This document shows, piece by piece, positions 1,579 through 19,262 of a stretch of DNA of 20,000 nt. The translations under genes were made by a program, and so were the position numbers. The notes beneath the pieces were generated by a model. It did not search any database. It was not told the DNA's origin and saw only the letters and a list, made by a program, of their open reading frames with translations. The stretch lies in sequence record SRR20825006_870; one strand, written 5' to 3'. How positions within the stretch are numbered: position 1 is the first letter of the stretch; each line of letters opens with the position of its first letter.

Positions 1579-1591
1579 GGTGAGTTAAACC

Positions 1592-2131: not shown

Positions 2132-2153
2132 CAATATTGGGACGGAGGCGACT

Positions 2154-2552
2154 ATGCCGCATTTGAGCATAGAATACTCAGCCAACCTGGCTGATAAGAT
2201 TGATATGAACGCACTTTGTCATGCGCTGCATGACGTGATGATCAATGCAGGGCCATTTGAAAAAGGCGGCGTGCGCGTGCGCGCTTTCCGCGCAGATCAT
2301 TATGCCATTGCGGATTTGCATGTGGAAAATGCATTTGTCGATATCAATTTGCGCATTGGTCGAGGCCGCAGCCAAGAAGACAAAAAGCAAGTGGGCGAGG
2401 CGCTGATCGCACGTGCTCAAGCGGAATTGGCATCGCTTTTTGAAACCGAACATTTTGCTCTTTCACTCGAAATTCGCGAAATTGACGCCGAGTTAAGTTG
2501 GAAGCGCAACACCATCCATAAACGCATTCGAGCAACAGGATCTAACGCATGA
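2154..2552 (+). CDS. hpaF: 5-carboxymethyl-2-hydroxymuconate Delta-isomerase (HpaF/HpcD, tautomerase superfamily)
   Basis: MPHLSIEYSANL start gives the catalytic Pro-1; GGVRVRA, IGRGRS and KRNTIH motifs; good RBS before ATG 2154. Confidence 0.92.
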   Translation: MPHLSIEYSANLADKIDMNALCHALHDVMINAGPFEKGGVRVRAFRADHYAIADLHVENAFVDINLRIGRGRSQEDKKQVGEALIARAQAELASLFETEHFALSLEIREIDAELSWKRNTIHKRIRATGSNA

Positions 2553-4063: not shown

Positions 4064-4125
4064 GCCCACCCCACAAATAAGAATTGAGTTTGCGGTTTTA
4101 GACCGCGTTGAGGAGATCCGTTAAA

Positions 4126-5106: not shown

Positions 5107-5108
5107 AG

Positions 5109-5213
5109 CGAACCCACTGGCGTTGGGCGGGGCGAAGATAACGGCAAGGCGAGAACTTTTTGAGCACTGAGCCGTTGACCTTTTAACGCCATCCCAACGC
5201 CAAGAGGCGTTTG
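5109..5213. repeat. Long imperfect intergenic inverted repeat (candidate MITE/REP-like element or mRNA stability hairpin)
   Basis: Nested pairings: TGGCGTTGGG (5118-5127) with CCCAACGCCA (5193-5202), GGCG (5131-5134) with CGCC (5187-5190), AACGGC (5140-5145) with GCCGTT (5171-5176). Confidence 0.6.
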
Positions 5214-5241
5214 ACTTGAACGGCTAACAAAGGAAAGCGAC

Positions 5242-6705
5242 ATGAAACTGAACGACCCCAAATTGCTCCGCGAAGCCCTGCCAGTTGCTGGTAAATGGAT
5301 CGAAACCAGCGATGATATGCTGACGGTCAAAAACCCATCCACCGGCGACATTGTGGGCAAGCTGCCCAAAATTGGCGCTGAAGAAGTGGAAGAAGCGATT
5401 GCCGCTGCGGCCAAAGCGCAAAAGCAATGGGCCAAACGCACCGCAAAAGAGCGGTCACAGATTCTGCGTCGCTGGTTTGAATTGATGATGGAACATCAGG
5501 ATGACCTCGCGGCCATTCTGACCCTTGAGCAAGGCAAACCGCTTTCCGAAGCCAAAGGCGAAATCGCCTATGGCGCAAGCTTTATTGAATGGTTCGCCGA
5601 AGAGGCACGCCGCGTTTATGGCGATTTGATCCCGGCGCACCGTACCGATAGCCGCATCATGGTGATGAAGCAGCCCGTTGGCGTTGTGGCGGCCATCACG
5701 CCGTGGAATTTCCCCAATGCCATGATCACCCGCAAAGCCGGACCTGCTTTGGCGGCAGGGTGTGCCATGGTGCTAAAGCCCGCGTCGCAAACCCCGTTCT
5801 CGGCGATTGCATTGGCCGTGCTGGCGGAACGTGCCGGGTTGCCCATGGAATTGTTCTCCGTGGTCACCGGCTCCTCCAAAACCATTGGCGACACACTGAC
5901 CGCCAGCGATGTGGTGCGCAAAATCACCTTTACCGGCTCCACGGAAGTGGGGGCGATGCTCTATGAGCAAAGCGCGCCAACCATCAAAAAACTCGGCTTG
6001 GAATTGGGCGGCAATGCGCCCTTTATTGTGTTCGACGATGCTAATGTGGATGACGCGGTTGACGGAGCAATCATCGCCAAGTTCCGCAATAATGGCCAGA
6101 CATGTGTGTGCGCCAATCGGGTTTATGTGCAAGCCAATATCTATGATGAATTTGCGCAAAAGCTGAAAGAAGCATTGCAGAAACTGAAAACCGGCGATGG
6201 ATTTGAAGATGATGTGACCTTCGGGCCGCTGATCGATCAGGGCGCGGTTGAAAAGGTGGAAGAACATATTGCGGATGCCAAGCAAAAGGGCGCTGAAGTT
6301 ACCTTGGGTGGTCAGCGCCACAGCTTGGGCGGTACCTTCTTTGAACCGACCATCATGACCGGCGTCACCCAAGATATGGCCGTGGCGACGGAAGAAACTT
6401 TTGGTCCCGTTGCGCCGCTGTTCAAGTTCGAGAGCGAAGCCGATGTGGTGCAGATGGCCAATGACACTGAATTTGGCCTTGCCTCTTATTTCTACGCCAA
6501 TGACCTCAGCCGCGTTTGGCGCGTCGCTGAGGAATTGGAATATGGCATGGTGGGCGTAAACACCGGGCTTATCTCCACTGCGGAAGCACCGTTTGGTGGC
6601 GTCAAACATTCCGGACTGGGCCGCGAAGGTTCCCACTATGGCTTAGATGAATTTTTAGAACTCAAATATGTCTGCCTCGGCGGCATCAAGGAAAATGAGG
6701 AATAA
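5242..6705 (+). CDS. gabD: NAD(P)-dependent succinate-semialdehyde dehydrogenase
   Basis: EQGKPLSEAKGEIAYGASFIEWFAEE, AITPWNFPNAMITRK, LELGGNAPF, KFRNNGQTCVCANR, GLGREGS. Confidence 0.95.
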   Translation: MKLNDPKLLREALPVAGKWIETSDDMLTVKNPSTGDIVGKLPKIGAEEVEEAIAAAAKAQKQWAKRTAKERSQILRRWFELMMEHQDDLAAILTLEQGKPLSEAKGEIAYGASFIEWFAEEARRVYGDLIPAHRTDSRIMVMKQPVGVVAAITPWNFPNAMITRKAGPALAAGCAMVLKPASQTPFSAIALAVLAERAGLPMELFSVVTGSSKTIGDTLTASDVVRKITFTGSTEVGAMLYEQSAPTIKKLGLELGGNAPFIVFDDANVDDAVDGAIIAKFRNNGQTCVCANRVYVQANIYDEFAQKLKEALQKLKTGDGFEDDVTFGPLIDQGAVEKVEEHIADAKQKGAEVTLGGQRHSLGGTFFEPTIMTGVTQDMAVATEETFGPVAPLFKFESEADVVQMANDTEFGLASYFYANDLSRVWRVAEELEYGMVGVNTGLISTAEAPFGGVKHSGLGREGSHYGLDEFLELKYVCLGGIKENEE

Positions 6706-6706
6706 T

Positions 6707-7579
6707 ATGACCAATCGGGCGCGCATCGCCACCTTTAAGCGCAACAACAAGCTGGGCTATGGGGCCATCACCGACACAGGCGTCGTGGACCTTTCTGCCC
6801 GCTTTGGCTCCAAATATGCAGGGTTGCGTGAAGTGATCGAAGCGGGCGCGCTGCCCGAATTGGTTGAGGCCGCAAAAGGCCAGCCCGACGATTTTGGTTT
6901 GGATGAGATTTCCTATGAAATTCCTATTCAGAATCCAGAGAAATTGATTTGCGTGGGCGTTAACTTCCCTAACCGAAATGAAGAATATAAGGACGGGCAA
7001 GAGGCACCGCCAAACCCGTCACTTTTCATCCGGTTCCCACGCTCCTTCACTGGCCATGACCAAGCTTTGGTCCGCCCTCACGCCTCGCCACAATTGGATT
7101 ATGAAGGCGAGATCGTGTTGGTGATCGGCAAAGGCGGTCGGCACATTGCGGAAGAAGACGCGTTGGACCATGTGGCGGCCTTGACCTTGTGCAATGAAGG
7201 CACAATCCGCGATTGGGTGCGCCATGCCAAGTTCAATGTGACCCAAGGCAAAAACTTTGACGATACGGGCGCCATCGGCCCTTGGTTGGTGCCGTTTGAA
7301 GGCGAAGAGCAATTGGCCGATGTGCGCCTCACCACCAAGGTGAATGGCGAAGTCCGTCAGGATGATCGCACCTCTCGCATGATTTTCAGCTTCAGAAAAT
7401 TGATCAATTATATTTCGACCTTCACCACCTTGGTGCCCGGCGACGTGATCGTGACCGGCACACCAACAGGCGCAGGCGCACGGCTTGATCCGCCACAATG
7501 GCTGAAGCCCGGTGATGTGATCGAAGTAGAAGCGGAAGGCATTGGCCTGTTGCGTAATACAGTGCGGGATGAGGACTAA
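6707..7579 (+). CDS. hpaG: Fumarylacetoacetate hydrolase family protein, probable HpaG-type isomerase/decarboxylase (single FAH domain)
   Basis: KLICVGVNF, LDYEGE, QGKNFD, GPWLV, PGDVIVTGTP motifs; positioned inside the hpa operon; start at ATG 6707 directly after gabD. The family call is strong; the exact activity is inferred from context. Confidence 0.8.
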   Translation: MTNRARIATFKRNNKLGYGAITDTGVVDLSARFGSKYAGLREVIEAGALPELVEAAKGQPDDFGLDEISYEIPIQNPEKLICVGVNFPNRNEEYKDGQEAPPNPSLFIRFPRSFTGHDQALVRPHASPQLDYEGEIVLVIGKGGRHIAEEDALDHVAALTLCNEGTIRDWVRHAKFNVTQGKNFDDTGAIGPWLVPFEGEEQLADVRLTTKVNGEVRQDDRTSRMIFSFRKLINYISTFTTLVPGDVIVTGTPTGAGARLDPPQWLKPGDVIEVEAEGIGLLRNTVRDED

Positions 7580-7580
7580 A

Positions 7581-8384
7581 ATGATCAGTGATGATGATGC
7601 CAAAAAGCTGGCGGAAGAACTGCACAATGCCGAGGAAACGCGGCAGCAAATTCCGCTGATCTCCAAGCGGTTTCCGGAGGCAGAACTGGCCGATGCCTAT
7701 AAGGTGCAAGATGCCTGGGTGGCCCATAAATATGGGTTGGGGCGTCAACGCATTGGGTGGAAAATTGGCCTCACGTCAAAAGCCATGCAGGCGGCATTGA
7801 ACATCACCACGCCCGATTCCGGCGTGTTGTTTGACGATATGGCGTTTGAAGATGGCGCAACAGTGCCAAAAGATCGCTTTATCCAACCGCGCATTGAAGC
7901 GGAAATTGCATTCGTTTTGAAAGCACCACTGAAAGGCGACAAGGTCACCATGTTCGATGTGCTGAACGCCACGGACTATGTGATCCCGTCATTGGAGATC
8001 TTGGACACGCGGGTTGTGCGCAAAGACGCAGACACAGGCCAGATGCGCACCATTGTCGACACGGTATCAGATAATGCGGCGAATGCCGGGCTGGTGCTGG
8101 GTGGCCGTGCCATGCGGGTTGATGAGGTAGATTTACGTTGGATCGGCGCCATCGTGCAGCGCAATGGCGTGGTGGAAGAAACTGGCCTTGGCGCAGGCGT
8201 GCTCAATCACCCGGCCATGGGCATTGTGTGGCTGGTGAAGCGGCTGGCGCAATTTGACATTGGCTTGGCACGCGGCGAGATTGTGCTTTCCGGCTCTTTC
8301 ATCCGCCCCGTGGAAACCAGCCACGGCGACACCATCATGGCAGACTTCGGCCCCTTGGGCACCGTCAGCACCTACTTCGAATAA
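7581..8384 (+). CDS. hpaH: 2-oxo-hept-4-ene-1,7-dioate hydratase (HpaH/HpcG)
   Basis: GWKIGLTSKAMQ, PRIEAEIAF, DTVSDNAANAG, EETGLGAGVLNHPA, VLSGSFIRP; RBS GAGG before ATG 7581. Confidence 0.95.
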   Translation: MISDDDAKKLAEELHNAEETRQQIPLISKRFPEAELADAYKVQDAWVAHKYGLGRQRIGWKIGLTSKAMQAALNITTPDSGVLFDDMAFEDGATVPKDRFIQPRIEAEIAFVLKAPLKGDKVTMFDVLNATDYVIPSLEILDTRVVRKDADTGQMRTIVDTVSDNAANAGLVLGGRAMRVDEVDLRWIGAIVQRNGVVEETGLGAGVLNHPAMGIVWLVKRLAQFDIGLARGEIVLSGSFIRPVETSHGDTIMADFGPLGTVSTYFE

Positions 8385-8395
8385 GGAACATCACC

Positions 8396-9199
8396 ATGCC
8401 AGCACCCACCAACAAATTTAAAGCCGCCATCCTGAAAGGCGAAAAGCAGATCGGGCTGTGGATGGGCCTCGCCAATGCCTATACGGCTGAAATTTGCGCC
8501 GGGGCAGGCTTTGATTGGCTGGTTATTGATGGCGAACATGCCCCCAATGATCTGCAATCCACTTTGAGCCAATTGCAAGCTTTGTCCAACTATCCGGTGA
8601 ACCCAGTGGTGCGGGTGCCGATTGGCGAAACCTGGTTGATCAAACAAGTATTGGACCTTGGGGCGCAAACCGTTTTGGTACCCATGGTGGAAAGTGCTGA
8701 ACAGGCGAAAGAGCTGGTGCGGGCGATTAAATATCCCCCCGCTGGCGTGCGCGGCGTTGGCGCGGCGCTGGCGCGAGCATCGCAGTTCAACCGCATTGGC
8801 GATTATCTGCAAACGGCAAATGATCAAACCTGCCTGATTGTACAGGTGGAAAGCCAAGTCGGCGTTGAGGCGATCGAAGAGATCGGTCAGATCGAGGGCG
8901 TGGATGGCATTTTTATCGGGCCTGCTGATTTGGCCGCAGATATGGGCTATCTGGGCCGCCCCGGCGAGCAGGTGGTGAAAGACGCGGTGCTTGATGGCAT
9001 CGCAAGAATTGTCGCCACAGGCAAAGCCGCAGGCATTTTGAGCGCGGATAAGGCTTTTGCGCGCGCGTGTTTAGACCAAGGCGCAAGCTTTGTGGCGGTC
9101 GGCACAGACGTAACTCTGTTCTCAGGTGCCACCAGCAAATTGGCTGAAGAATTCACTGGTGCGGGCCACGCTGCACCTGCAGGTGACAAGACCTACTAA
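8396..9199 (+). CDS. hpaI: 4-hydroxy-2-oxoheptanedioate aldolase (HpaI/HpcH)
   Basis: GFDWLVIDGEHAPN, KQVLDLGAQTVLVPMV, YPPAGVRGVG, GIFIGPADL. Confidence 0.93.
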   Translation: MPAPTNKFKAAILKGEKQIGLWMGLANAYTAEICAGAGFDWLVIDGEHAPNDLQSTLSQLQALSNYPVNPVVRVPIGETWLIKQVLDLGAQTVLVPMVESAEQAKELVRAIKYPPAGVRGVGAALARASQFNRIGDYLQTANDQTCLIVQVESQVGVEAIEEIGQIEGVDGIFIGPADLAADMGYLGRPGEQVVKDAVLDGIARIVATGKAAGILSADKAFARACLDQGASFVAVGTDVTLFSGATSKLAEEFTGAGHAAPAGDKTY

Positions 9200-9213
9200 T
9201 TTTCTAAAGCAAG

Positions 9214-9238
9214 GCCCTGCCCATCAGATGAGCAGGGC
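9214..9238 (+). terminator. GC-rich hairpin after hpaI (possible weak terminator or pause site)
   Basis: GCCCTGC (9214-9220) pairs with GCAGGGC (9232-9238), with an inner CATC/GATG. No clear U-tract follows. Confidence 0.4.
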
Positions 9239-9255
9239 AAACTTGCACCCATACT

Positions 9256-9274
9256 TTTAACATGTTAAATATAT
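9256..9274. promoter_or_regulatory. Second putative HpaR operator, upstream of the FeaR-like regulator
   Basis: Perfect palindrome TTTAACATGTTAAA (9256-9269). The reverse complement of 9256-9274 matches 2113-2131 at 18 of 19 positions. Confidence 0.7.
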
Positions 9275-9409
9275 AGCTAGGCAGCTCGACTGTTTAAAAA
9301 ATACTATGACATGGCGTTGGCCGCTCAACTGGGCAGACAACTGCATGCCACCACAAAGCATAATGAGATCGCGAGTTGCCGATGAGGGAGTTTTGTTGGA
9401 GGAAGTGCC

Positions 9410-10360
9410 ATGCTGATACAACCAGAAACACGCATACAACATGCGGTGAACGATGCGTTTCAACCGCTCGCGCTGGATATTTTTGGCTCATTGGTGGTGG
9501 GGTTTAACGACGCCGAGCCGCAAAGTGCTGAGCTGCACACGGCAAACTTTGGCGCTTGCCGATTGTCGCACATCACGGCAAGTGCCCATTCGGTTGATGG
9601 CGCGCGCGCGGTGCGTCGTTCGTTCGACCCGGACGCCATTAAGCTGATTTTGCAAAATGAGGGCCATTCACGCCTGAAACAAGCAAATGTTGAACTGGAG
9701 TTGGTACCCGGCAGCTGGGTGGCCTATGATCCAACCAAATCCTATAGCTTGGATAACCTATCGCCCGTGAAGCAATTGATCCTTCAATTGCCGCGCCATA
9801 ATATTCCAGCCGCCGCATTGCAGCAATTGATGCGCCCCAACAAGCTGGATATTGCCGAACGGAGCTTGCACAAAATTTTGTACACCATGATGTCTTCAGC
9901 ATTGGACCAAGTGGATGGATTAGATGCCGAAGGGCAATCTGGTGTAGGCGATGCGCTGCTCCATTTGGCCAAAACATTGGTGCTGCGCATCGATCCAGAG
10001 GATTTGGAGCGCTCTGCCGTTTCCCTCAAAACCCTGCGCATGCGGGTTAAAGCCTATATCGAAACCAATCTGTCACGATCAGATTTGGACATTGCCGAAC
10101 TGGCACAAAAAATGGGGTGTTCGCGCCGCTATTTGTTCCGCGCTTTCGAGCAAGACGAAACCACCCCATCAGAATTTTTGTGGGGGCTTCGGCTGGATAA
10201 ATCTTTGGAACGTTTGTCTTCGCCCAAATTTGCAGGAGCATCAATTTCGGAGATCGCGTTCTCTTGCGGCTTTTCATCAAGTTCGCACTTTTCACGCGCC
10301 TTCAGAAAACGCTTTGATATTTCACCAAGCGAAGCGCGGCATGCCAAAACGTTGAATTAA
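9410..10360 (+). CDS. AraC-family transcriptional activator, FeaR/TynR-like
   Basis: C-terminal AraC double HTH (IAELAQKMGCSRRYLFRAF; ISEIAFSCGFSSSSHFSRAFRKRFDISP). The N-terminal domain has the FeaR-type pattern (ELVPGSWVAYDPTKSY, QLILQLPR). RBS GGAGG. Confidence 0.88.
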   Translation: MLIQPETRIQHAVNDAFQPLALDIFGSLVVGFNDAEPQSAELHTANFGACRLSHITASAHSVDGARAVRRSFDPDAIKLILQNEGHSRLKQANVELELVPGSWVAYDPTKSYSLDNLSPVKQLILQLPRHNIPAAALQQLMRPNKLDIAERSLHKILYTMMSSALDQVDGLDAEGQSGVGDALLHLAKTLVLRIDPEDLERSAVSLKTLRMRVKAYIETNLSRSDLDIAELAQKMGCSRRYLFRAFEQDETTPSEFLWGLRLDKSLERLSSPKFAGASISEIAFSCGFSSSSHFSRAFRKRFDISPSEARHAKTLN

Positions 10361-10382
10361 AAAAGGGGCCAATTGGCCCCTT
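10359..10382 (-). terminator. Rho-independent terminator of the minus-strand SDR-moaF-snoaL operon (possibly bidirectional)
   Basis: Perfect palindrome AAGGGGCCAATTGGCCCCTT (10363-10382). The A6 run at 10359-10364 reads as U6 on the minus strand. It lies between convergent genes. Confidence 0.8.
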
Positions 10383-10404
10383 AATTCTTGGTCTATGATT
10401 GCCC

Positions 10405-10797
10405 CTAAGGCTTTAAAGCATCTGCCACCAATTTTGTGTCGGCAAACTGTTCAAACTTGACCACTTTGCCGTCCTCAACTTCCCACACATGGGTGACACG
10501 CGCTTCAAAGCTTTTGCCTGTTGATTTGGCCGTGGCTGCATAAAGACCGACACCCACGACATGGGAACCAGCGTCTAGCAATTGGTTGAGGGTGAAGGTG
10601 AAATTATCGAACAGATCGCCAAGGGCGAAGAACACGTTCTTCTTCACTTCCTCCGGCCCAATATAGGTGCCAGCGCACGGAAAACCCGCAGCTTCAGTCC
10701 AGGCACAATCATCGGCAAGTGGGGCCAGCATGCCCTCCAGATCACCCCGATCACTGGCGGCATAATGGGCTTTTACAATCTCATAAGCTTCAGACAT
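10405..10797 (-). CDS. SnoaL-like / NTF2-family protein (ketosteroid isomerase-like fold)
   Basis: 130 aa; HYAASDRGDLEGML, WTEAAGFPCAGTYIGPEEV, HVWEVEDGKVVKFEQFADT; RBS GGAG. Confidence 0.88.
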   Translation of the reverse strand: MSEAYEIVKAHYAASDRGDLEGMLAPLADDCAWTEAAGFPCAGTYIGPEEVKKNVFFALGDLFDNFTFTLNQLLDAGSHVVGVGLYAATAKSTGKSFEARVTHVWEVEDGKVVKFEQFADTKLVADALKP

Positions 10798-10806
10798 TAG
10801 GTCTCC

Positions 10807-11595
10807 TTAAACCGGCTCTTGGCCCGGCAGATAGTAGGTCATGGATGCTTTGCGGATGAATGCGCCGGCCGGGTTGTTGGCAATGGAGCCGTCGCCCTCA
10901 ATGCCCAAAAATTTGCCGGTAGAGCGCATTTCATTAAAGTCGTGGAAGAAGGTGGAGGCCACCGGGATCAAATATTCCCGGAAGGTGAAAATATATTGGC
11001 CTTCATCAAACTTATAAGTGGTCGCCAAATCCACATCCCCATGGCCACGCTGCACGCCCACCAAATTCTGCCACGCATAGCGCGTGGACGAGAGATAGGT
11101 GTGTTCATACACATGGTTGGGGCTATAGGTGTAATGCGCCCGCAAGCCGATCAAATCGCGCGTTTCTGCGGGCTCTGGTCCGCTAATCTCTACGCCATCC
11201 AATGTGCCGGGGCGGAAAATCTGTTCCACCTGTGGGTCGCCCGCTGCTTCTTCAACACTGCGAATATGCGCGTAGATGGAGAGCACACGACCTGTGCTTA
11301 CATTGATGATCACCGTGTCCGCATCTTTGGGGCGATCTGCAAAGACCATATCGACAAAATAGGTGTTGGGCGCCAAATTGATGACCTCACACCAATCGCT
11401 GCCGCTTTGGCCATTTTCTTGCCAATCCACCTTGTCTTTTGCGGTGAATTTTAGGGCCAGTTTGCGCCCATCATTAAAGCTGATGGCAAAATCCTTGCCG
11501 ATCAACTCGTCGGTTGTGGGCAGGCGATTATGATCAATGCCAGCGGCAAAATCATCGTAATTCTTCCAGTCTGCGGGTCTCGCTTGTTCGCTCAT
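10807..11595 (-). CDS. moaF: MoaF-family protein (two tandem calycin / phenolic-acid-decarboxylase-like domains), function uncharacterised
   Basis: 262 aa with an internal repeat (TDELIGK.../TRDLIGLR...). Motifs YTYSPNHVYEHTY, WQNLVGVQRG and YIFTFREYLIPV are recognised as MoaF-like. It lies downstream of an SDR, as in the Klebsiella monoamine-regulon moaEF operon. It is not a molybdenum cofactor gene. Confidence 0.78.
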   Translation of the reverse strand: MSEQARPADWKNYDDFAAGIDHNRLPTTDELIGKDFAISFNDGRKLALKFTAKDKVDWQENGQSGSDWCEVINLAPNTYFVDMVFADRPKDADTVIINVSTGRVLSIYAHIRSVEEAAGDPQVEQIFRPGTLDGVEISGPEPAETRDLIGLRAHYTYSPNHVYEHTYLSSTRYAWQNLVGVQRGHGDVDLATTYKFDEGQYIFTFREYLIPVASTFFHDFNEMRSTGKFLGIEGDGSIANNPAGAFIRKASMTYYLPGQEPV

Positions 11596-11606
11596 TTGTT
11601 CCTCCT

Positions 11607-12395
11607 CTATTCAACAAATGCCAATGTGGGCAGATCAACCGTGCCAGCGCCGCCATCGACGGTGACGATGGCGCCATTCATCATCGACGCCTCCGCACTG
11701 GCCAAAAAGCAGATCACATTGGAGATTTCTTCCGGTGTGGCCGCGCGCCCCAAAGGCACGTCTTTCGTGACCAGTTGATAGGCCTCATCCACTGAGTTCA
11801 GCCCGTGCTTTTCAATCAGCACTTGCATTTGATCGTCAGCCATGGCGGTGCGCACCCAACCGGGGCATACCGTGTTGGTGCGGACGCCCTTGCGGCCATA
11901 ATCGCGCGCCAGCGATTTCGCTAGACCAATCAAACCATGCTTCATGGTCACATAGCCCGCCGCATCCGGCCCGGCAAACAGCCCAGCAATGGAGGCCACA
12001 GCCACAATGTTGCCTTTGGCTTCAATCAGGGCGGGCAGAGCAGCGCGGGCCGTTACAAACGCCGTGTCTAGATTTGCGCGGGTGGCGTTCGCCCACGTCT
12101 CATCGCTCATGGAGATGGTGGGGCCAACACCATGGCCACCCGCATTGGCGATCAAAATATCCAAATGGCCATATTGTTTCACAAGGCTCTGGACCACTTG
12201 GCCCATCGCGTCTGCGTCCGCTGCATCTGCCGCATAGATATCTGCCTCAATATCAGCAGCCACAGCTTCCAATGGTTCTTTGCGGCGACCCACCAAAGCC
12301 ACCTTGCCGCCTTCAGCGGCGATCCGCTTGGCAACCTCGGCCCCAATGCCGGTGCCGCCACCCGTGATCAGCGCAACTTTATCTTTAAATCTCAT
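11607..12395 (-). CDS. Short-chain dehydrogenase/reductase (positional equivalent of Klebsiella monoamine-regulon MoaE)
   Basis: TGGGTGIG, NAGG, VAVAS, YVTMK, CPGWVRTAM motifs; strong RBS GAGGAGG before ATG 12395. Confidence 0.9.
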   Translation of the reverse strand: MRFKDKVALITGGGTGIGAEVAKRIAAEGGKVALVGRRKEPLEAVAADIEADIYAADAADADAMGQVVQSLVKQYGHLDILIANAGGHGVGPTISMSDETWANATRANLDTAFVTARAALPALIEAKGNIVAVASIAGLFAGPDAAGYVTMKHGLIGLAKSLARDYGRKGVRTNTVCPGWVRTAMADDQMQVLIEKHGLNSVDEAYQLVTKDVPLGRAATPEEISNVICFLASAEASMMNGAIVTVDGGAGTVDLPTLAFVE

Positions 12396-12499
12396 CTGTT
12401 CCTCCTCGGTCCGATCAGAGCCTAGGTTTGGCGAGATCGCGTGTCGCGCCCCGGTGCGCATTCAAGATTGATCAGGAGTGCAAAGGCCGCCCTAAGCCG

Positions 12500-12537
12500 C
12501 GTCAACCCCTTGATAGCCGGGGCTTTGACGGGTCAAA
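12500..12537. promoter_or_regulatory. Overlapping inverted repeats in the divergent SDR/ALDH promoter region
   Basis: CGTCAA-CCCC (12500-12509) pairs with GGGG-CT-TTGACG (12519-12530); a second palindrome TTTGAC-GG-GTCAAA lies at 12524-12537. Confidence 0.4.
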
Positions 12538-12592
12538 AATCAGATTAATCATCGCGCAATCCCAAATGCGCGTACCCTGAGGAGGAGGAAAA

Positions 12593-13999
12593 ATGAGTTC
12601 TTACGGCCTAGTGATCAATGGTGAAAAAATCAGCACGGCAGACTATCTCGATGTCTTAAACCCGGCAGACCAATCAGTGGTGGGGCAGATGCCCCTTGCC
12701 AGCACGGATCAACTTGATGACGCAGTGCGCGCCGCCCAAGCGGCCTTTCTGGCGTGGCGTGATTTGGATGACAAAGAACGGCAGAAATTGTGCAATCAAT
12801 TGGCAGATAAGCTGGAAGCGCACCATGAGGAATTGGCCAAACTGATCACCGCCGAACAGGGCAAGCCACTTGTGCAATTGGGTTCACGCTTTGAGCTGGA
12901 TGGCGCCATCGGCTGGAGCCGCGCGACTGCCGCGCTGGACATGCCAATCGAAGTGATTGAAGAAACTCCTGATGGTCGTGTCGAACTGCACCGCAAACCC
13001 ATTGGCGTTGTGGGCTCCATTACCCCATGGAACTATCCTGTGATGATCGGGTGCTGGCACATCATCCCGGCCTTGCGGGCGGGCAACACGGTGGTGATTA
13101 AACCGTCGCCGCTCACCCCGCTTTCCACTTTGCGAATGGTCGAACTATTCAATGAAGTTTTGCCCAAAGGCGTTTTGAACGCGGTGACGGGCGACGACCA
13201 ATTGGCTGCTGCCATGTCTGCCCACCCTGGCTTCAACAAAATGGTATTCACCGGCTCAACCGCCACGGGCAAAAAGATCATGGCATCGGCGGTGGATAGC
13301 TTGAAACGCTTAACGTTGGAACTGGGGGGCAATGATGCTGGGATTGTGCTGCCTGATGCTGACCCGAAACAAGTGGCCGAAGGCCTGTTTTGGGGCGCGT
13401 TCCTGAACAATGGGCAGACCTGTGCGGCGCTTAAACGACTCTATGTCCATGCGAATATTTATGATGCAGTGTGCACCGAAATGGCGGCCATTGCGCAAAA
13501 TGTAAAAACCGGACCGGGCATGGAAGAAGACAGTGTGTTCGGCCCCATCCAAAACCGCAATCAATTTGAAAAAGTCAAAGCTTTGGTGGACGATGCTAAG
13601 GCGCGTGGTGCGCGCATTTTAACGGGTGGCGAGCCAATGGCGGGGGAGGGCAATTTTTATCCCATCACGCTGGTGGCGGACATTGAGCAAGATGCACGGT
13701 TGGTGGATGAAGAACAGTTTGGCCCGGCTCTGCCCATCGTCAAATATCACGATATAGACGAAGCGGTGAAGATGGCCAACGCATCTCCCATGGGGCTAGG
13801 CGGTTCAGTTTGGTCGAGCGACAAAGCCAAAGCCAAACAAATCGCTAGTCGGCTCGAATGCGGATCTGTCTGGATCAACAATCACGGGGCCATTCAACCC
13901 AACGCGCCCTTCGGTGGCGTCAAGCAATCGGGCATCGGCCTTGAATTCGGCATGGAAGGCCTCAAAGAGTTCACGGTTACCCAAACCGTGTTTGTTTAA
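12593..13999 (+). CDS. Aldehyde dehydrogenase, probably acting on an (hydroxy)phenylacetaldehyde
   Basis: SITPWNYP, FTGSTATGKK, TLELGGNDAGIV (catalytic Glu), NNGQTCAALKRLYVH (catalytic Cys), EEQFGP; RBS GAGGAGGAGG. Substrate is inferred from context. Confidence 0.9.
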   Translation: MSSYGLVINGEKISTADYLDVLNPADQSVVGQMPLASTDQLDDAVRAAQAAFLAWRDLDDKERQKLCNQLADKLEAHHEELAKLITAEQGKPLVQLGSRFELDGAIGWSRATAALDMPIEVIEETPDGRVELHRKPIGVVGSITPWNYPVMIGCWHIIPALRAGNTVVIKPSPLTPLSTLRMVELFNEVLPKGVLNAVTGDDQLAAAMSAHPGFNKMVFTGSTATGKKIMASAVDSLKRLTLELGGNDAGIVLPDADPKQVAEGLFWGAFLNNGQTCAALKRLYVHANIYDAVCTEMAAIAQNVKTGPGMEEDSVFGPIQNRNQFEKVKALVDDAKARGARILTGGEPMAGEGNFYPITLVADIEQDARLVDEEQFGPALPIVKYHDIDEAVKMANASPMGLGGSVWSSDKAKAKQIASRLECGSVWINNHGAIQPNAPFGGVKQSGIGLEFGMEGLKEFTVTQTVFV

Positions 14000-14015
14000 G
14001 TCTTTTAGGGCGGCG

Positions 14016-14666
14016 CTATGGCGTCGCCTTTTCCGGGGCATGGGGGCCAAAGGCGCAAAGGAAAATGCGCACGGCTTCCTGTGCCTGCGCTTTCAGCGCA
14101 GCCTTGTTGGGGATGCCTTTATCGCCCAACAACATGGCATCATTTGTTGGTGCACCCATCAAAAGCCAATTGAATTGTCGCGCCGCAACGCTAGCATTTG
14201 GTGCGTAAAGCAGGCCTCTCTGATGATAAAATTCTATCGCATGGGCAAGCCGTGCGATGGAGTTTTTCGGGCCATTTTCATGCAAGGCTTCACCTAGCTC
14301 GGGAAACCGTTCAACCTCGCCAATCACCATGCGGCGTAGCTGCATAAGACGTGGGGTCATCACCACCATCAATTGCTGCTCAGCGATTTCCAAAAAGAAG
14401 TTTTTCACATCATCATTTGTTGGCGGCTCAATTTGATCTTCCCGAAGTTCAGCCGACGCCATGCCCGACATGCTTGTCGCTAGGGCTTTGAATAGAATTT
14501 CTTTGGATTGAAAATTGGCATAAACCGTTTGCTTGGACACGCCGGCCCTATCCGCAATTGCATCCATATTGGTGCCCAAAAAACCATTTTTCAAAAAGAC
14601 ATATTCCGCCGCTTTTAGGATTTTTTCCTGACTGCGCTTTTTGCGGGTTTGCGCCCCATTGGACAT
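14016..14666 (-). CDS. TetR/AcrR-family transcriptional regulator
   Basis: N-terminal HTH (ILKAAEYVFLKNGFLGTNMDAIADRAGVSKQTVYANFQSKEILF); C-terminal LRRMVIGEVERFPELG and AVRIFLCAF; RBS GAGG before ATG 14666. Confidence 0.93.
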   Translation of the reverse strand: MSNGAQTRKKRSQEKILKAAEYVFLKNGFLGTNMDAIADRAGVSKQTVYANFQSKEILFKALATSMSGMASAELREDQIEPPTNDDVKNFFLEIAEQQLMVVMTPRLMQLRRMVIGEVERFPELGEALHENGPKNSIARLAHAIEFYHQRGLLYAPNASVAARQFNWLLMGAPTNDAMLLGDKGIPNKAALKAQAQEAVRIFLCAFGPHAPEKATP

Positions 14667-14718
14667 AAATATGTGCCTCAAATCACCTCATATGACACCA
14701 CACTATAAAAGACTCCTC

Positions 14719-14747
14719 TTGACAAATCAAACTGGACGGTCCAGTCT
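14719..14747 (+). promoter_or_regulatory. Promoter of the GFA-family gene with a TetR operator in the spacer
   Basis: TTGACA at 14719-14724 and the 15-bp palindrome ACTGGAC-G-GTCCAGT at 14731-14745, in the gap between divergent tetR and its partner. Confidence 0.75.
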
Positions 14748-14777
14748 ATTTGGCGAGATGGAAATAGGTGAGTAGAG

Positions 14778-15254
14778 ATGCAAAACCAAATTTTGTCCTG
14801 CCAATGTGGCAAGGTGCAGTTGAGCTTGAAGGGCAAGGAAATGGCCAGTGCGGATTGTGGGTGCAGCAGCTGCCAAAAGGCTGGGGCGAAGATGCAAGCT
14901 TTGGATGGCGCACCTACAATTCTGAATTCGCACGGCGCCACGCATTTCGAGCTTTATCGCAAAGATTATATCAATTGCGAAAAGGGCGCTGAGCATTTGG
15001 CGCAGTTCCGTTTGAAAGAAGATAGTCCCACCCGTCGCATCATGGCCACGTGCTGCAACACTCCGATGTTTCTCGATTTCGGACCGGGCCATTGGGCTAG
15101 TGTTTACGGCATTTTGTGGCCAGCCGGTACCGTAACGTCAAAGCGTGCTAAATCATTTTCGGCTGGTTTTATGGCCAAGCTATTGTGGGCGTGGGCAAAG
15201 ATGGGCTTCAAATCGCCTAAGATCACATTTGTCGATCGACAAATTGAACTTTAA
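14778..15254 (+). CDS. GFA / CENP-V-like zinc-binding protein (DUF6151-like)
   Basis: Cys pattern CQCG...CGCSSC...ATCCNTPMF; RBS AGGTGAG. Confidence 0.8.
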   Translation: MQNQILSCQCGKVQLSLKGKEMASADCGCSSCQKAGAKMQALDGAPTILNSHGATHFELYRKDYINCEKGAEHLAQFRLKEDSPTRRIMATCCNTPMFLDFGPGHWASVYGILWPAGTVTSKRAKSFSAGFMAKLLWAWAKMGFKSPKITFVDRQIEL

Positions 15255-15366
15255 GGGCACCAATTGCATGCGTAAAACCCACTTTTGCGTGTAAAAATCG
15301 CCTATTGCATTGTTTTGCCTTAACTTCTCCCTTAGCTTTATCGAGATTTATATGGGGAGGAAGCCA

Positions 15367-16137
15367 ATGAGCGGTACGGAAAAATATAACGCGCCAGCGC
15401 TCGATAAAGGGCTCGACATTATTGAAACATTGGCAGAGGCGGGGGAAAGCCTCACCCAGGGTGAAATCGCCAAACGTCTGGATCGCTCCGTCAGTGAAAT
15501 TTTCCGGATGCTGGTGGTGCTGCGGCGGCGTGGGCTGATCGCGCTGGATGAAACCAGCGACCGCTATTACCTCACCACACGCCTGTTTGAATTGGCCCAT
15601 CGTATCCCCATTGTAAAGCGGTTGACCGTGGCGGCCGCACCTGTGATGCAGCGCTTAGCTGCGCAAACCAACCAATCTTGTCATTTGGGGGTCCGCTCCG
15701 GCGATAGCATTGTGATTGTGGGGCAGGTGGACAACCCCGGCAACAATGTGTTGAGCGTGCGCATGGGCGCGCGGATCGAATTTTGGCGCACCTCATCTGG
15801 TCGGGTGATTTTGGCGCATTCAGACCCTGAAGTGCGTGAAAAGGCAATCGCCAGCATTCCTCATCCTGATAAAGTGCCTGCCAAACAATTGCGCACGGAA
15901 CTGAACCAGATTGCCAGCCAAGGCTATGAGCAACTGGAAAGCCTTGTGGTGAAGGGCATCGAAAATATCAGTGCCCCGATATTGGGCTTTGATGGCTTTG
16001 CCACCGCAGCGCTGACCATACCTTATATGGAGCGCTTGCAAGGCGGTATGCCGAAAGAGGAATGTTTGCAGGAATTGCTGGCCGCCGCTGAAAGCATTTC
16101 AGTGCAATTGGGCGGCCCAGCACGGGCGCTCACTTAA
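15367..16137 (+). CDS. IclR-family transcriptional regulator
   Basis: YNAPALDKGLDIIETLA and EIAKRLDRSVSEIFRML HTH, TSSGRVILA, ISAPI...AALTIP; RBS GGAGG at 15356-15360 supports ATG 15367. Confidence 0.93.
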   Translation: MSGTEKYNAPALDKGLDIIETLAEAGESLTQGEIAKRLDRSVSEIFRMLVVLRRRGLIALDETSDRYYLTTRLFELAHRIPIVKRLTVAAAPVMQRLAAQTNQSCHLGVRSGDSIVIVGQVDNPGNNVLSVRMGARIEFWRTSSGRVILAHSDPEVREKAIASIPHPDKVPAKQLRTELNQIASQGYEQLESLVVKGIENISAPILGFDGFATAALTIPYMERLQGGMPKEECLQELLAAAESISVQLGGPARALT

Positions 16138-16151
16138 ATCGTAAGCGTGGC

Positions 16152-17207
16152 TCAAGCTTCTGGAAGCGTGTGGGACGGCAATTCATTGGCCTCAAAACAT
16201 GCTTCCACCAAAGCCATGGTGTCGATGCAGTTTTCCACTGAGGTTTCTAACGCCTCATCTTCCCCAATGTGGAAGCGCTGCACATTGCGGAAAATGCCGG
16301 AAAACGCGTCGAGGAACCAAGATCCTTCAAGCGGGATTTGCTGCCATTCCTGCTCTTTTGTCGCCAACCACAATTCGTCTGGCTCGCCCTTTGGGTAGTT
16401 CAGATTAACGCCGATCTGGGTCACGATTGCGCCCTTGTCGCCTTCAAAGCGGAACGAGCACTCTTGGAATTTACGGCCATAATCATGGTTGTGATTTAGG
16501 GTGAGGGTACAGCGCAGCTTGTCGCCATAATCCAAAATGGCTGATGTGCGGGTTTGCGCCATATTGGCAGATCGCGGATCGCCCATTGTGCGGGCAAATA
16601 CGCCTTTAGGTGCGCCCACTAGTGACCGGATCAAATCTAAATAGTGTATAGAGTGCACCGCAATTTCGATGCGCTCCAGGCCCTCAAGGAAAGGCCATAA
16701 CTCCCATGGCGTTTTCAAATTGAGGTGCATTTCAATTTCGAGCAACTCACCTAAGACACCCCGCTGAATCGCGTCGCGCACCGCCAACATTTGTGGGCTG
16801 AACCGCAATTGGAAATTGATTCCCGCCTTTAAATTGCGATCACGACAAATCTGCAAAATCTCTTTCGCCTGATCGAAGTTCGATCCCATTGGCTTTTGAA
16901 TCAGCACCGTGGCGCCTTCAGGCACATGGTGCAACGTTTCGGCAATGGCCGCGGGCGGCAAGGCCAAATCATAAATGACGTCGGTGCCATGCTGCATGGC
17001 TTCAGCAAGCGTGGCGAACACTTTGTCCACACCCCATTCGGTTGCAACTTCCTGCGCGCGTTCCTGATTCAAATCGAACAGGCCAGCCACCGGAATGCCC
17101 TCATTCTTATAGGTGGGCAAATGTGCATCAACCACAATGCTGCCCGCGCCAATGATGACGGTGGGCGTGGTGCGCGATGGTTTTGGCCAGCTTTGCATAA
17201 GCGTCAT
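16152..17207 (-). CDS. Gfo/Idh/MocA-family oxidoreductase, probable sugar dehydrogenase
   Basis: IIGAGSIVVDAHLP, IQKP (variant of EKP), NFQLRFSP, HSIHYLD; start at ATG 17207 after an AAGG RBS. Confidence 0.88.
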   Translation of the reverse strand: MTLMQSWPKPSRTTPTVIIGAGSIVVDAHLPTYKNEGIPVAGLFDLNQERAQEVATEWGVDKVFATLAEAMQHGTDVIYDLALPPAAIAETLHHVPEGATVLIQKPMGSNFDQAKEILQICRDRNLKAGINFQLRFSPQMLAVRDAIQRGVLGELLEIEMHLNLKTPWELWPFLEGLERIEIAVHSIHYLDLIRSLVGAPKGVFARTMGDPRSANMAQTRTSAILDYGDKLRCTLTLNHNHDYGRKFQECSFRFEGDKGAIVTQIGVNLNYPKGEPDELWLATKEQEWQQIPLEGSWFLDAFSGIFRNVQRFHIGEDEALETSVENCIDTMALVEACFEANELPSHTLPEA

Positions 17208-17289
17208 GGGAGTACCTTTCCGCCATTTTTTGATTTGGCGATCTGTAAGAATTAGCCGAGCAAAGGGGTAAATGCACCCCAAAAGTTAA

Positions 17290-17338
17290 TTTCATTTATA
17301 AAAATACTTTTGACATATAAAAAAATCAAGTTTAGTTT
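17290..17338 (+). promoter_or_regulatory. Sigma70-type promoter of the mutarotase-dehydratase operon with tandem putative IclR boxes
   Basis: TTGACA (17310-17315), 17-bp spacer, TAGTTT (17333-17338). Boxes TTTCATTTATAAAA (17290-17303) and TTTGACATATAAAA (17309-17322). Confidence 0.65.
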
Positions 17339-17368
17339 GCGGGAAAAATCAATCCAATGGAGCAGCCA

Positions 17369-17698
17369 ATGGAACGCATGGGAATGGTGATCGGTGTGCG
17401 GCCTGAATTTATTGCGCGCTATAAAGAACTGCACGCAGATGTGTGGCCGGAAATTTTGCAAAGCCTGAGCGATTGCAACGTCACCAACTATTCCATTTTT
17501 CTGCGCGAACCAGAAAATTTGCTGTTCGGTTATTGGGAATATGTGGGCAGCGATTTTGCTGCCGACATGAAGAAAATGGCCGACATGCCCATCACCCAAG
17601 AATGGTGGGAAGTGTGTATTCCTTGTCAAAAGCCATTGGAGAGCAAACAAGAAGACGAATGGTGGGCATCTATGGAGCAAGTCTTCTACCATCCATAA
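17369..17698 (+). CDS. L-rhamnose mutarotase (RhaM) family sugar mutarotase
   Basis: YKELHADVWPE, NYSIFL, LLFGYWEY, TQEWW, MEQVFY; RBS GGAG at 17359-17362 supports ATG 17369. Confidence 0.88.
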   Translation: MERMGMVIGVRPEFIARYKELHADVWPEILQSLSDCNVTNYSIFLREPENLLFGYWEYVGSDFAADMKKMADMPITQEWWEVCIPCQKPLESKQEDEWWASMEQVFYHP

Positions 17699-17725
17699 TC
17701 CACCTTGCGGATCGAAAGTCTATTC

Positions 17726-18067
17726 ATGACCAATAAAAATAACACAGCCCCAATGGGCGAATATGATCCACGACTGATTTTGCTGGACCCGAACGACAAT
17801 ATATTTGGCGTGGCCCGGCCCATTCGCGCGGGCGAAATGCTTATGATTGATGGCGAGCTTGCGCAACTCGACCAACAGGCGGGCATGGGCTTTAAAATTG
17901 CGGCCCGCAACATCGAACAAGGCGAACATATTTTAAAATATGGCGCCGTGATTGGCGTGGCCAATCAACATATCACCAAGGGCCAATTGGTGCATGTGCA
18001 CAATATTGAAAGCACCTATATGGCCAACACCGTGACAACAGGCACCAGAAAAGAGGTTATCTCATGA
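17726..18067 (+). CDS. UxaA/GarD-family dehydratase small subunit (stand-alone SAF domain)
   Basis: LDPNDNIFGVARPI...GFKIAARNIEQGEHILKYGAVIGVA...GQLVHVHNI. Start is uncertain (17726 or 17753). Confidence 0.85.
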   Translation: MTNKNNTAPMGEYDPRLILLDPNDNIFGVARPIRAGEMLMIDGELAQLDQQAGMGFKIAARNIEQGEHILKYGAVIGVANQHITKGQLVHVHNIESTYMANTVTTGTRKEVIS

Positions 18068-19254: not shown

Positions 19255-19262
19255 GAGTTAAA

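Follow-up and report, generated by a model that had tools for sequence, protein, structure and literature searches.

Which compounds feed the meta-cleavage of homoprotocatechuate (HPC; 3,4-dihydroxyphenylacetate), and by what chemistry, when the genes for that pathway lie beside a moaF gene? The question was raised by a 20,000-nucleotide stretch of a marine bacterium, from sequence record SRR20825006_870 (the whole stretch being referred to as the window), in which, at positions 9410-13999, an AraC-family regulator, a triad encoding a short-chain dehydrogenase (SDR), MoaF and a SnoaL-like protein, and a divergent aldehyde dehydrogenase (ALDH) directly adjoin a complete hpa operon. The first-pass annotation of this DNA had proposed that noradrenaline- or adrenaline-type amines, or an aryl glycol made by the SDR, are dehydrated by MoaF to an arylacetaldehyde, which the ALDH oxidizes to HPC. 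Our analysis showed a functional tie of the MoaF triad, together with the ALDH and the AraC regulator, to HPC meta-cleavage, into which these genes form a peripheral pathway with an uncharacterised enzyme pair. Of the earlier interpretation, the tie to HPC cleavage stood and the dehydration became chemically credible by analogy with the phenolic acid decarboxylases (PADs), but MoaF need not be the deaminating enzyme, and the lack of a ring hydroxylase is not general. The region is probably central to an accessory catabolic island by which catechol-type C6-C2 compounds are channelled into HPC.

Gene identities in the window were taken from the listing of open reading frames (ORFs) together with Pfam and NCBIfam scans, and the FeaR-like regulator, the SDR-moaF-snoaL operon, the divergent ALDH and the adjoining hpa set were all located as annotated. 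The triad lies on the minus strand and begins with a MoaE-type SDR (11607-12395; the ORF extends to 12461, and the Met at 12395 is the likely start), followed by moaF (10807-11595) and, as the last gene, by one for a SnoaL_2/NTF2-like protein (10405-10797). Gaps of only 11 bp between the SDR and MoaF and 9 bp between MoaF and SnoaL indicated a tight operon. MoaF was a clear member of its family, with both Pfam domains far above the gathering thresholds (PF10703, 105.5 bits, cut-off 23.3; PF17409, 132 bits, cut-off 22.1). The AraC-family gene (9410-10360, plus strand) encodes AraC_binding_2 and HTH_18 domains, and its best NCBIfam match was FeaR (NF007243); it shares the two-domain architecture of FeaR and was rightly called FeaR-like, but its score of 124.2 bits, with the cut-off at 199, does not make it a FeaR equivalog. 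Between the convergent AraC and SnoaL genes lies a palindromic GC-rich hairpin (10363-10382) that is terminator-like on both strands; this is a pattern match only, from a scan that as a whole did not rise above shuffled controls.

The ALDH gene (12593-13999, plus strand) is divergent from the triad, 131 bp apart. Its product reached no NCBIfam equivalog cut-off: the best family was an aminobutyraldehyde dehydrogenase subfamily (433 bits against 615), and the StyD/FeaB-type phenylacetaldehyde dehydrogenase family (NF045735) scored 403.8 bits against a cut-off of 850. Among its PDB relatives 8YEN, for which the literature search yielded no substrate, ranked best, with the phenylacetaldehyde dehydrogenases 4o5h and 4qyj second and fourth. 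Further moaF loci, mainly from Mesorhizobium and Pannonibacter, carried a non-orthologous ALDH whose best family was the StyD phenylacetaldehyde dehydrogenase (628 bits, cut-off 850). The earlier proposal that the enzyme acts on arylacetaldehydes was strengthened by the fact that both ALDH types found beside MoaF resemble phenylacetaldehyde dehydrogenases most, but the scores remain below the cut-offs.

The end-point of the pathway was clear from the neighbouring genes. The hpa set is complete at 1592-9199, and HpaR, HpaE, HpaD, HpaH and HpaI exceeded their NCBIfam equivalog cut-offs. The MarR-type repressor HpaR is encoded on the minus strand (1592-2026; TIGR02337, 170.5 bits, cut-off 121.2), and the remaining genes, all on the plus strand, encode the 5-carboxymethyl-2-hydroxymuconate (CHMI) isomerase HpaF (2097-2552; PF02962, 163 bits), the 5-carboxymethyl-2-hydroxymuconate semialdehyde (CHMS) dehydrogenase HpaE (2549-4063; TIGR02299, 784.6 bits, cut-off 638.35), the VOC-type 3,4-dihydroxyphenylacetate 2,3-dioxygenase HpaD (4108-5106; TIGR02295, 418.6 bits, cut-off 321.4), a succinate-semialdehyde dehydrogenase (5242-6705; TIGR01780, 733 bits, cut-off 646), a single-domain, HpaG-like FAH-family decarboxylase (6668-7579; PF01557, 226 bits; TIGR02303, 171.6 bits, below the cut-off of 276.4), the hydratase HpaH (7542-8384; TIGR02312, 413.7 bits, cut-off 351.5) and the aldolase HpaI (8396-9199; TIGR02311, 382.3 bits, cut-off 368.8). 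The operon thus belonged to the hpa meta-cleavage pathway by its dioxygenase, CHMS dehydrogenase, downstream enzymes and regulator, with the decarboxylase identified to the level of the FAH family only.

The survey of MoaF neighbourhoods indicated that this adjacency is more than local. Species genomes were scanned with an alignment of orthologues, which yielded 410 relatives, and the best 80 loci (57-98% identity) were taken; they represent the MoaF orthologue group, come nearly all from Hyphomicrobiales, and are related loci anchored on MoaF. Window proteins, the proteins upstream of the equivalent region in the closest genome compared (G001) and a few locus proteins were compared with all ORFs of the 80 loci, within 10 kb of moaF. 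SnoaL was present in 76/80 loci, and the SDR (at least 60% identity) and SnoaL (at least 45%) occurred together in 70/80. Homologues of the AraC regulator (at least 35% identity) were present in 56/80 loci and the orthologous ALDH (at least 55%) in 44/80. VOC-type hpa genes were found in 31/80 loci (25 of the 59 with full 10-kb flanks), and another four, all from Pannonibacter, carried the LigB-type dioxygenase HpaD_Fe (TIGR02298, 448.6 bits, cut-off 316), which in two of these (L071 and L072) directly followed SnoaL. The linkage of moaF to hpa genes that the first-pass annotation had put forward as a check was therefore found, with an HPC-pathway gene within 10 kb in 35/80 loci, and co-occurrence at the genome level agreed with it: a strong hpaF/CHMI match (E <= 1e-25) was present in 7/7 genomes with a canonical two-domain MoaF, versus 35/394 others in a 401-genome sample. 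The division into canonical and atypical MoaFs was made by architecture after the table had been inspected, and with the atypical genomes G228, G284 and G379 included the counts become 7/10 versus 35/391.

The order of the genes was more telling than the counts. In this window the hpa operon is followed by the AraC gene and by the triad on the opposite strand; in Rhizobium, Shinella and Brucella the order is hpaI-SDR-MoaF-SnoaL on one strand; L047 has the triad, AraC, HpaR, hpaG and hpaFED; L082 has hpaFED-MoaF-SnoaL; and in L065 the triad is enclosed as hpaG-triad-hpaH. Across at least seven named genera, HPC genes thus adjoined MoaF in no fewer than five gene orders and with two unrelated types of dioxygenase. 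MoaF was present in 3/41 close relatives, which marks it as accessory DNA, and in 10/401 sampled Pseudomonadota genomes; in a set of 1.84 billion proteins clustered at 50% identity, the whole family made up 335 clusters. The closest named locus was that of Maritalea mobilis (L016; MoaF 98% identity). The closest locus outside Maritalea, from a Rhizobiales metagenome-assembled genome (L017), holds ALDH, MoaF, SnoaL, AraC, HpaR, SDR_b, SDR_a (the two further SDRs described below), an aminotransferase and an ABC transporter as contiguous genes. HpaR is present there, with no hpa operon between AraC and HpaR, and no MoaE-type SDR passed the filter. This arrangement suggests a module that was otherwise continuous and that either received the hpa operon by insertion or lost it.

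The genes at the entry to the pathway differed among lineages. A GMC oxidoreductase (at least 47% identity to the Rhizobium enzyme) was found in 66/80 loci. In Rhizobium it is encoded in an operon together with an ALDH, a Peripla_BP_6 ABC transporter, an SDR and an AraC regulator, which adjoins the hpa...hpaI-SDR-MoaF-SnoaL genes; the enzyme is choline-dehydrogenase-like, with a score below the cut-off. The module of an aminotransferase with SDR_a and SDR_b was found in 5/80 loci; L016 ends too soon on the upstream side for the aminotransferase to be visible. The Devosia loci and L017 carried the GMC enzyme as well as the aminotransferase, and in many Rhizobium loci the 10 kb around moaF encoded no deaminating enzyme. 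Lineages therefore differ in the entry enzyme, it being an alcohol oxidoreductase in most lineages and an aminotransferase here, with the ALDH, the triad and the HPC end-point as the constant part. In G001 the GMC orthologue (61% identity) is on another contig, in a two-gene unit with an SDR (L115, contig C1, 8261-10768); a sugar ABC transporter and a glycoside hydrolase adjoin this unit.

That an aminotransferase belongs to this locus became apparent at the edge of the window. Positions 3-35 (plus strand) hold the last 10 codons and the stop of a class-III aminotransferase gene of the glutamate-1-semialdehyde (GSA)-aminomutase-like type, and the encoded C-terminus (ISLLQENGVA*) corresponds to that of the G001 enzyme (ISLLQENGVV*). 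The stop overlaps the ATG of SDR_a (35-826, plus strand), which is followed in the same transcription unit by a second short-chain dehydrogenase gene, SDR_b (814-1578, plus strand). G001, a 98% complete genome, is 95% identical over window positions 1-14034 and 14778-20000, and upstream of the equivalent region it encodes a Liv-type (Peripla_BP_6) ABC transporter and then the full 464-aa class-III aminotransferase, which scored 610 bits on the 'transaminase' family NF005453 (cut-off 425). The best solved relative of this enzyme was 5ykr, a 'probable aminotransferase' that we take to be a Pseudomonas aeruginosa protein. Orthologues of SDR_a (64-73% identity) accompany the aminotransferase in L017, L063, L074, L085 and L092, and SDRs 46-51% identical to SDR_a adjoin MoaF in the genomes G325 and G116. 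In P. aeruginosa, PA4088/PA4089 and PA5523/PA5524 are pairs of a GSA-aminomutase-like aminotransferase and an SDR, to which the accessible parts of two reports assign no function (PMC6558427, PMC7857532).

The window was previously described as encoding neither an amine-removing enzyme nor the hydroxylase HpaBC. Our Pfam and NCBIfam scan likewise found no HpaB-type hydroxylase and no amine oxidase in the window, but the apparent lack of an amine-removing enzyme arose because the window was cut at the end of the aminotransferase gene. A profile search of G001 gave no match to HpaB_N and none to Cu_amine_oxid, and with no HpaB_N match no other source of HPC was apparent in that genome. The argument that a catechol substrate makes a ring hydroxylase unnecessary fits the absence of HpaB from G001, but it does not extend to the family, as HpaB was present in 4/8 MoaF genomes tested and within 10 kb of MoaF in 7/80 loci.

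Structural comparison suggested what MoaF may contribute. By sequence, its sole solved relative was 4q51, an uncharacterised Burkholderia protein (E 2.6e-27). The AlphaFold model (pLDDT 96.5) consists of two beta-barrels, and after 4q51 Foldseek returned about 20 PAD chains (E 6e-5 to 2e-3, probability 1.0, TM 0.48-0.55 on the target). In a search with a profile of 70 MoaF sequences, PADs were matched by the C-terminal domain (E 2.2e-5) and also by the N-terminal one (E 5e-3). PADs are homodimers, and the matches of both halves indicated that MoaF is a fused pair of PAD-like domains. At E <= 0.001 the Pfam search of MoaF listed MoaF and MoaF_C only, with no PA_decarbox match; MoaF is a remote relative of the PADs and not a member of their family.

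The resemblance extends in part to the active site. In the alignment, the Tyr-x-Tyr of PADs corresponded to Tyr155-Thr-Tyr157 of MoaF, Tyr-Glu to Tyr163-Glu164, and Trp-x-Glu to Phe205-Arg206-Glu207. PDB titles name the PAD mutants Tyr20Phe, Arg48Gln and Glu71Ser, and counting along the chains places these residues in the aligned motifs. Over the 70 MoaF sequences, Tyr157 was conserved in 70/70, Glu207 and Glu164 in 69/70 each, Tyr167 in 68/70, His165 and Arg152 in 65/70 each, Arg206 in 52/70 and Tyr155 in 37/70. The N-terminal barrel has lost all of the PAD residues, and the C-terminal barrel alone retains the catalytic Glu and the Tyr pair, the first Tyr of which varies over the family. As far as the accessible text of two studies on PADs goes, the Tyr pair anchors and deprotonates the phenol and the Glu serves as general acid/base; PADs also hydrate hydroxystyrenes at the benzylic carbon via a quinone methide, and replacement of Glu by Ala or of Tyr by Phe abolishes this hydration (PMC5488193, PMC10116590). 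Run in reverse, PAD hydration would be the loss of a benzylic hydroxyl group para to a phenol, the very step that had been given to MoaF, and by this analogy a benzylic dehydration is chemically credible. The earlier designation of MoaF as a dehydratase thus gained from the PAD-like fold and the quinone-methide residues, but MoaF need not deaminate, with an aminotransferase encoded upstream and a GMC enzyme in 66/80 loci.

The partner of MoaF was as constant as its own residues. From alpha- to gamma-proteobacteria, the MoaF-linked SDRs all fell into one group of orthologues (50-78% identity), with catalytic Asn/Ser/Tyr/Lys and a common C-terminal tail, and Gly-Arg-Arg after beta-strand 2 was invariant in 14/14 of them. 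In classical SDRs, basic residues after beta-strand 2 point to NADP(H), so the motif indicates an NADP(H)-type enzyme and hence, usually, a reductase. SDRs beside distant MoaFs in L109 and L107 were 50-53% identical to that of the window. The window itself encodes a pair of the moaEF type, and the earlier suggestion of kinship with moaEF held, its SDR and MoaF having their orthologues in a locus of the moaR-atsBA-moaEF type. SDR-MoaF fusions were found as two representative proteins, each about 590 aa long and with an SDR from a different subfamily, which provides independent support for a coupled redox step. Prediction of an SDR-MoaF complex gave a score of 0.00, which carries no weight for or against binding. 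The idea that the SDR makes the glycol found no support, as a GMC enzyme that oxidizes a glycol would work in opposition to it. The third protein of the triad, SnoaL (model pLDDT 97), was 56% identical to the uncharacterised protein 3ec9, and its nearest characterised folds were TerC (22-24% identity), ketosteroid isomerase and limonene epoxide hydrolase. Its absence from the moaEF-type and G325 loci indicated that it is auxiliary.

Distant MoaFs, at about 30% identity, retain the SDR partner in otherwise different surroundings. In G289, a LuxR-type regulator, a radical-SAM maturase, a sulfatase, an SDR and MoaF are encoded in that order, which presumably corresponds to the moaR-atsBA-moaEF layout of Klebsiella aerogenes. 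MoaF of this locus was 30% identical and its SDR 50% identical to those of the window, and SnoaL, ALDH, AraC and hpa neighbours were absent. G116 has AraC, MoaF and an SDR. In G325 (L107), LuxR, an FAD oxidoreductase, an MFS transporter and an amidase precede MoaF, two SDRs and a divergent AraC (10367-15880); the best family of the oxidoreductase was L-pipecolate oxidase, below the cut-off, and the amidase, transporter, LuxR and oxidoreductase together hint that the entry substrate in that lineage is an amide or a secondary amine. G014 (L110, about 9407-11700) has a second MoaF paralogue (30% identity) directly downstream of an aminotransferase paralogue (46%), and this pair sits between hpaFED-SSADH (the latter for succinate-semialdehyde dehydrogenase) and an ABC transporter whose orthologue precedes the window; two MoaF types therefore flank the hpa genes of one genome. 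Atypical proteins of 580-609 aa in G284 (L113, 8872-10614) and G228 (L114, 8814-10643) combine an N-terminal half of about 330 residues, without a known family, with weak MoaF N- and C-terminal domains, and the neighbour of the G284 protein belongs to the tannase/feruloyl-esterase family. No hpaF match was found in G228, G284 and G379, the genomes with long or single-domain MoaF-like proteins. A 2068-aa match (P0218) was an immunoglobulin-repeat protein and was discarded, and a protein combining MoaF_C and SnoaL_2 (P0163) was a possible gene-calling artefact and was not used as evidence.

On these sequence and model comparisons we tentatively propose, as a real possibility though short of a firm expectation, that the SDR and MoaF remove the benzylic hydroxyl group of para-hydroxylated C6-C2 compounds via a quinone methide, by which beta-hydroxylated catechols would reach HPC. 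Noradrenaline, adrenaline and the corresponding glycol, glycolaldehyde and mandelate cannot enter the HPC pathway unless the beta-hydroxyl group is removed, and a lyase combined with an NADPH reductase would make sense for this reason. In the proposed route, the Liv-type ABC transporter would import the substrate, and the class-III aminotransferase would turn an arylethylamine or arylethanolamine into the aldehyde or alpha-hydroxy aldehyde, a task for which relatives would mostly use the GMC oxidoreductase on an alcohol or glycol. MoaF, as a cofactor-free PAD-like lyase, could hold the para-phenolate on its Tyr pair, with Glu207 as the acid/base that expels water to give the quinone methide. 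The NADP(H)-type SDR would perform the redox step, reducing either the quinone methide or the carbonyl before dehydration; alternatively, the MoaF and SDR step may follow the ALDH, at the level of the mandelate. SnoaL could act as an auxiliary tautomerase or dehydratase. The ALDH would then oxidize the arylacetaldehyde to HPC, which the hpa operon would cleave to pyruvate and succinate, and the FeaR-like AraC protein would activate the divergent promoters of the triad and the ALDH. The gene content and its conservation, the genome-level co-occurrence with hpa, the PAD-like fold and residues of MoaF, and the motif and fusions of the SDR are what the comparisons showed directly; we infer the substrate class, the direction of the steps, the level (aldehyde or mandelate) at which the hydroxyl group is lost, and the roles of SnoaL and the upstream SDRs.

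Several observations weigh against this proposal. The transporters, of the Peripla_BP_6 type and, next to the triad in two Pannonibacter loci, of the TRAP type, hint at anionic or amino-acid-like substrates and not at a cationic amine, and the aminotransferase falls in a GSA-aminomutase-like subfamily without an assigned substrate. The GMC orthologue lies elsewhere in this genome lineage, and three SDRs plus SnoaL exceed the enzymes strictly needed. The position that corresponds to the PAD Arg (Arg48/49) varies in MoaF, which has its own conserved Arg152 and Arg206; these possibly bind a carboxylate, in which case an acid substrate or a decarboxylation would be favoured. No HPC-pathway gene was found within 10 kb in 45/80 MoaF loci. 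The survey was also anchored on MoaF and drew mostly on related Hyphomicrobiales, so the loci are not independent, although the counts make them look more so than they are; the range of gene orders and the presence of two unrelated dioxygenase types argue more strongly.

In one alternative, which we consider quite unlikely, MoaF would be a cofactor-free enzyme that decarboxylates enol 3,4-dihydroxyphenylpyruvate, an analogue of an alpha-hydroxycinnamate, to the arylacetaldehyde, with the SDR interconverting aryl-lactate and arylpyruvate, SnoaL acting as keto-enol tautomerase, and the aminotransferase feeding in DOPA-type amino acids. Para-hydroxycinnamic acid decarboxylases are the closest characterised relatives of MoaF, Arg152 and Arg206 might hold the carboxylate, keto-enol isomerases exist within the NTF2 fold, and Peripla_BP_6 and TRAP transporters generally carry amino acids or organic acids. 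Such a pathway, however, leaves the GMC oxidoreductase of 66/80 loci without a role, class-III aminotransferases seldom use alpha-amino acids, an NADP(H)-type SDR suits a reductase more than a lactate-oxidizing dehydrogenase, and no link is offered to the monoamine-regulon context of the moaEF-type locus. In the direct version of the first-pass annotation, the PAD-like quinone-methide residues would serve a MoaF that acts alone as a hydro-lyase of the octopamine/synephrine type, converting a phenylethanolamine (noradrenaline, adrenaline or octopamine) via the enamine to the arylacetaldehyde and ammonia or methylamine, with the ALDH yielding HPC and the SDR only making or inverting the benzylic alcohol. 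The divergent arrangement of the ALDH and the triad under one AraC regulator would match the co-induction of octopamine hydrolyase and 4-hydroxyphenylacetaldehyde dehydrogenase that Cuskey et al. reportedly observed in P. aeruginosa PAO in 1987; the Rhizobium loci that lack a nearby deaminating enzyme, and the resemblance of both ALDH types to phenylacetaldehyde dehydrogenases, would agree with it too. We nevertheless regard this version as unlikely, given that the upstream aminotransferase gene shares the transcript here and accompanies MoaF in other loci too, that the frequency of the GMC enzyme points to alcohols rather than amines in most lineages, and that a redox-neutral lyase would not need an SDR, whereas the one found here is an obligate partner, has a motif of the NADP(H) type and in some proteins forms a fusion with MoaF.

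More weight, although we still hold it to be rather improbable, was given to the view that the island degrades non-hydroxylated substrates, such as dopamine or tyramine and hydroxytyrosol or tyrosol, via the aminotransferase or GMC enzyme and the ALDH, with the triad in an auxiliary capacity, for example on quinone or quinone-methide side products or in some other modification. An entry enzyme and the ALDH would suffice to lead from dopamine or hydroxytyrosol to HPC, the function of the triad is deduced from remote homology alone, and relatives of SnoaL include TerC and cyclases that act on quinone or polyketide substrates. An auxiliary role poorly explains why several independent arrangements have the triad within an hpa operon or immediately after one, and it does not explain the retention of the SDR-MoaF pair from alpha- to gamma-proteobacteria. 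That the adjacency is fortuitous, with the triad and ALDH derived from an unrelated pathway, would accord with the accessory distribution of MoaF (3/41 close relatives) and with the 45/80 loci without a nearby HPC gene, but it is hardly credible in view of two dioxygenase types, at least seven genera and five gene orders, and hpaF in 7/7 versus 35/394 genomes.

Downstream of the ALDH, the gene for a TetR/AefR-like regulator (14016-14681) lies in a 743-bp presence/absence segment (14035-14777), in place of which G001 has 69 bp; contigs of the sequencing runs X10 and X11 break at 14034 and restart at 14778, and in the marine metagenome run X2 one contig covered the gene, with the joined form (14034 to 14778) present as well. 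Positions 14778-20000 hold a separate cluster, apparently for sugar-acid catabolism, encoding a GFA/DUF6151 protein, an IclR regulator, a GFO/IDH/MocA oxidoreductase, a 146-aa protein without a family, an SDR, and a galactarate/altronate-dehydratase-like protein without its N-terminal domain; a 120-aa ORF (17705-18067) abuts the latter and may be the missing piece. In G001 (L014) the same cluster extends further, to genes for an FAH-family protein, an FMN-dependent dehydrogenase, LacI and a sugar ABC transporter. Two RNA-library runs of one study, containing a 90-95% relative of the whole window, were considered as a sign of transcription and rejected, as the contigs were long and the depth was even and covered both strands and intergenic DNA, indistinguishable from DNA carry-over.

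It is possible, if doubtful, that the SDR and MoaF represent an unrecognised two-enzyme benzylic dehydroxylase and, as such, the genetic basis for the conversion of octopamine, synephrine, noradrenaline, adrenaline and their metabolites to (di)hydroxyphenylacetaldehyde or -acetate. If so, orphan enzyme activities would receive genes, the moaEF genes of the monoamine regulon of Klebsiella, known for 30 years, would be explained, as would the bacterial use of beta-hydroxylated catecholamines and of plant or algal catechols, and the PAD fold, already employed in biocatalysis, would gain a new reaction type. The island would then allow marine and plant-associated Hyphomicrobiales to grow on such compounds through HPC meta-cleavage. 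The role of MoaF is now well constrained and testable, with a partner SDR, an HPC end-point, the candidate residues Tyr157 and Glu207, and a short list of substrates. Even with the substrate wrong, the conserved set of SDR-MoaF-SnoaL, GMC enzyme or aminotransferase, ALDH, AraC and hpa genes would stand. A literature search, in which most subscription journals were out of reach and 'MoaF' matched mostly an unrelated acronym, returned no function for MoaF or moaEF, no account of this gene set, and no gene assignment for octopamine or synephrine dehydratase.

Among known systems, the moaEF operon of K. aerogenes, which Azakami et al. are said to have placed in the monoamine regulon in 1995, resembles the window in having an SDR gene directly before moaF, and the SDR of the G289 locus has Gly-Arg-Arg and the C-terminal tail in common with that of the window. 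The moaEF-type locus of G289 differs in its regulator, which is of the LuxR and not the AraC type. With the PADs, MoaF shares the beta-barrel fold and, in its C-terminal domain, the catalytic Glu and, with a variable first Tyr, the Tyr-x-Tyr motif; unlike them, it combines two domains, one of them degenerate, in a fused pseudo-dimer, always has an SDR as its partner, and does not conserve the PAD Arg, having instead its own Arg152, His165, Tyr167 and Arg206. The context also differs, being HPC catabolism for MoaF and hydroxycinnamate detoxification for PADs.

The net chemistry of the proposed module, including an NAD-dependent ALDH and HPC meta-cleavage, would be like that of octopamine dehydratase (EC 4.2.1.87) from P. 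aeruginosa and synephrine dehydratase (EC 4.2.1.88) from Arthrobacter synephrinum, and to our knowledge no gene or sequence has been linked to either activity. Both dehydratases were described without an NADPH requirement, whereas MoaF is always paired with an SDR. Such pairing is familiar from reductase and dehydratase pairs that take oxygen off phenolic substrates, such as tri-/tetrahydroxynaphthalene reductase with scytalone dehydratase, TerB with TerC, and quinone-methide reductases of the eugenol-synthase or pinoresinol-lariciresinol reductase type, in which, as proposed here, an NADPH-dependent reductase of the SDR fold works with a dehydratase that is small and needs no cofactor; the NTF2-like SnoaL, with TerC as its nearest characterised fold, may be a third component. 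These systems serve biosynthesis, with naphthalenes, terphenyls or phenylpropenes as substrates; apart from the 22-24% identity to TerC they share no sequence identity with the locus, and the dehydratase candidate in our locus is PAD-like, not NTF2-like.

The tynA-feaB-feaR and hpa route of Escherichia coli and Klebsiella for tyramine and dopamine has the same sequence of intermediates, from the amine through the arylacetaldehyde and arylacetate to HPC, and likewise a two-domain AraC regulator. The locus described here has an aminotransferase or GMC enzyme in place of the copper amine oxidase, an ALDH that is not a FeaB or StyD equivalog, no HpaBC in G001, and the triad in addition. It works like the tynA-feaB-feaR and hpa route but is not a member of it.

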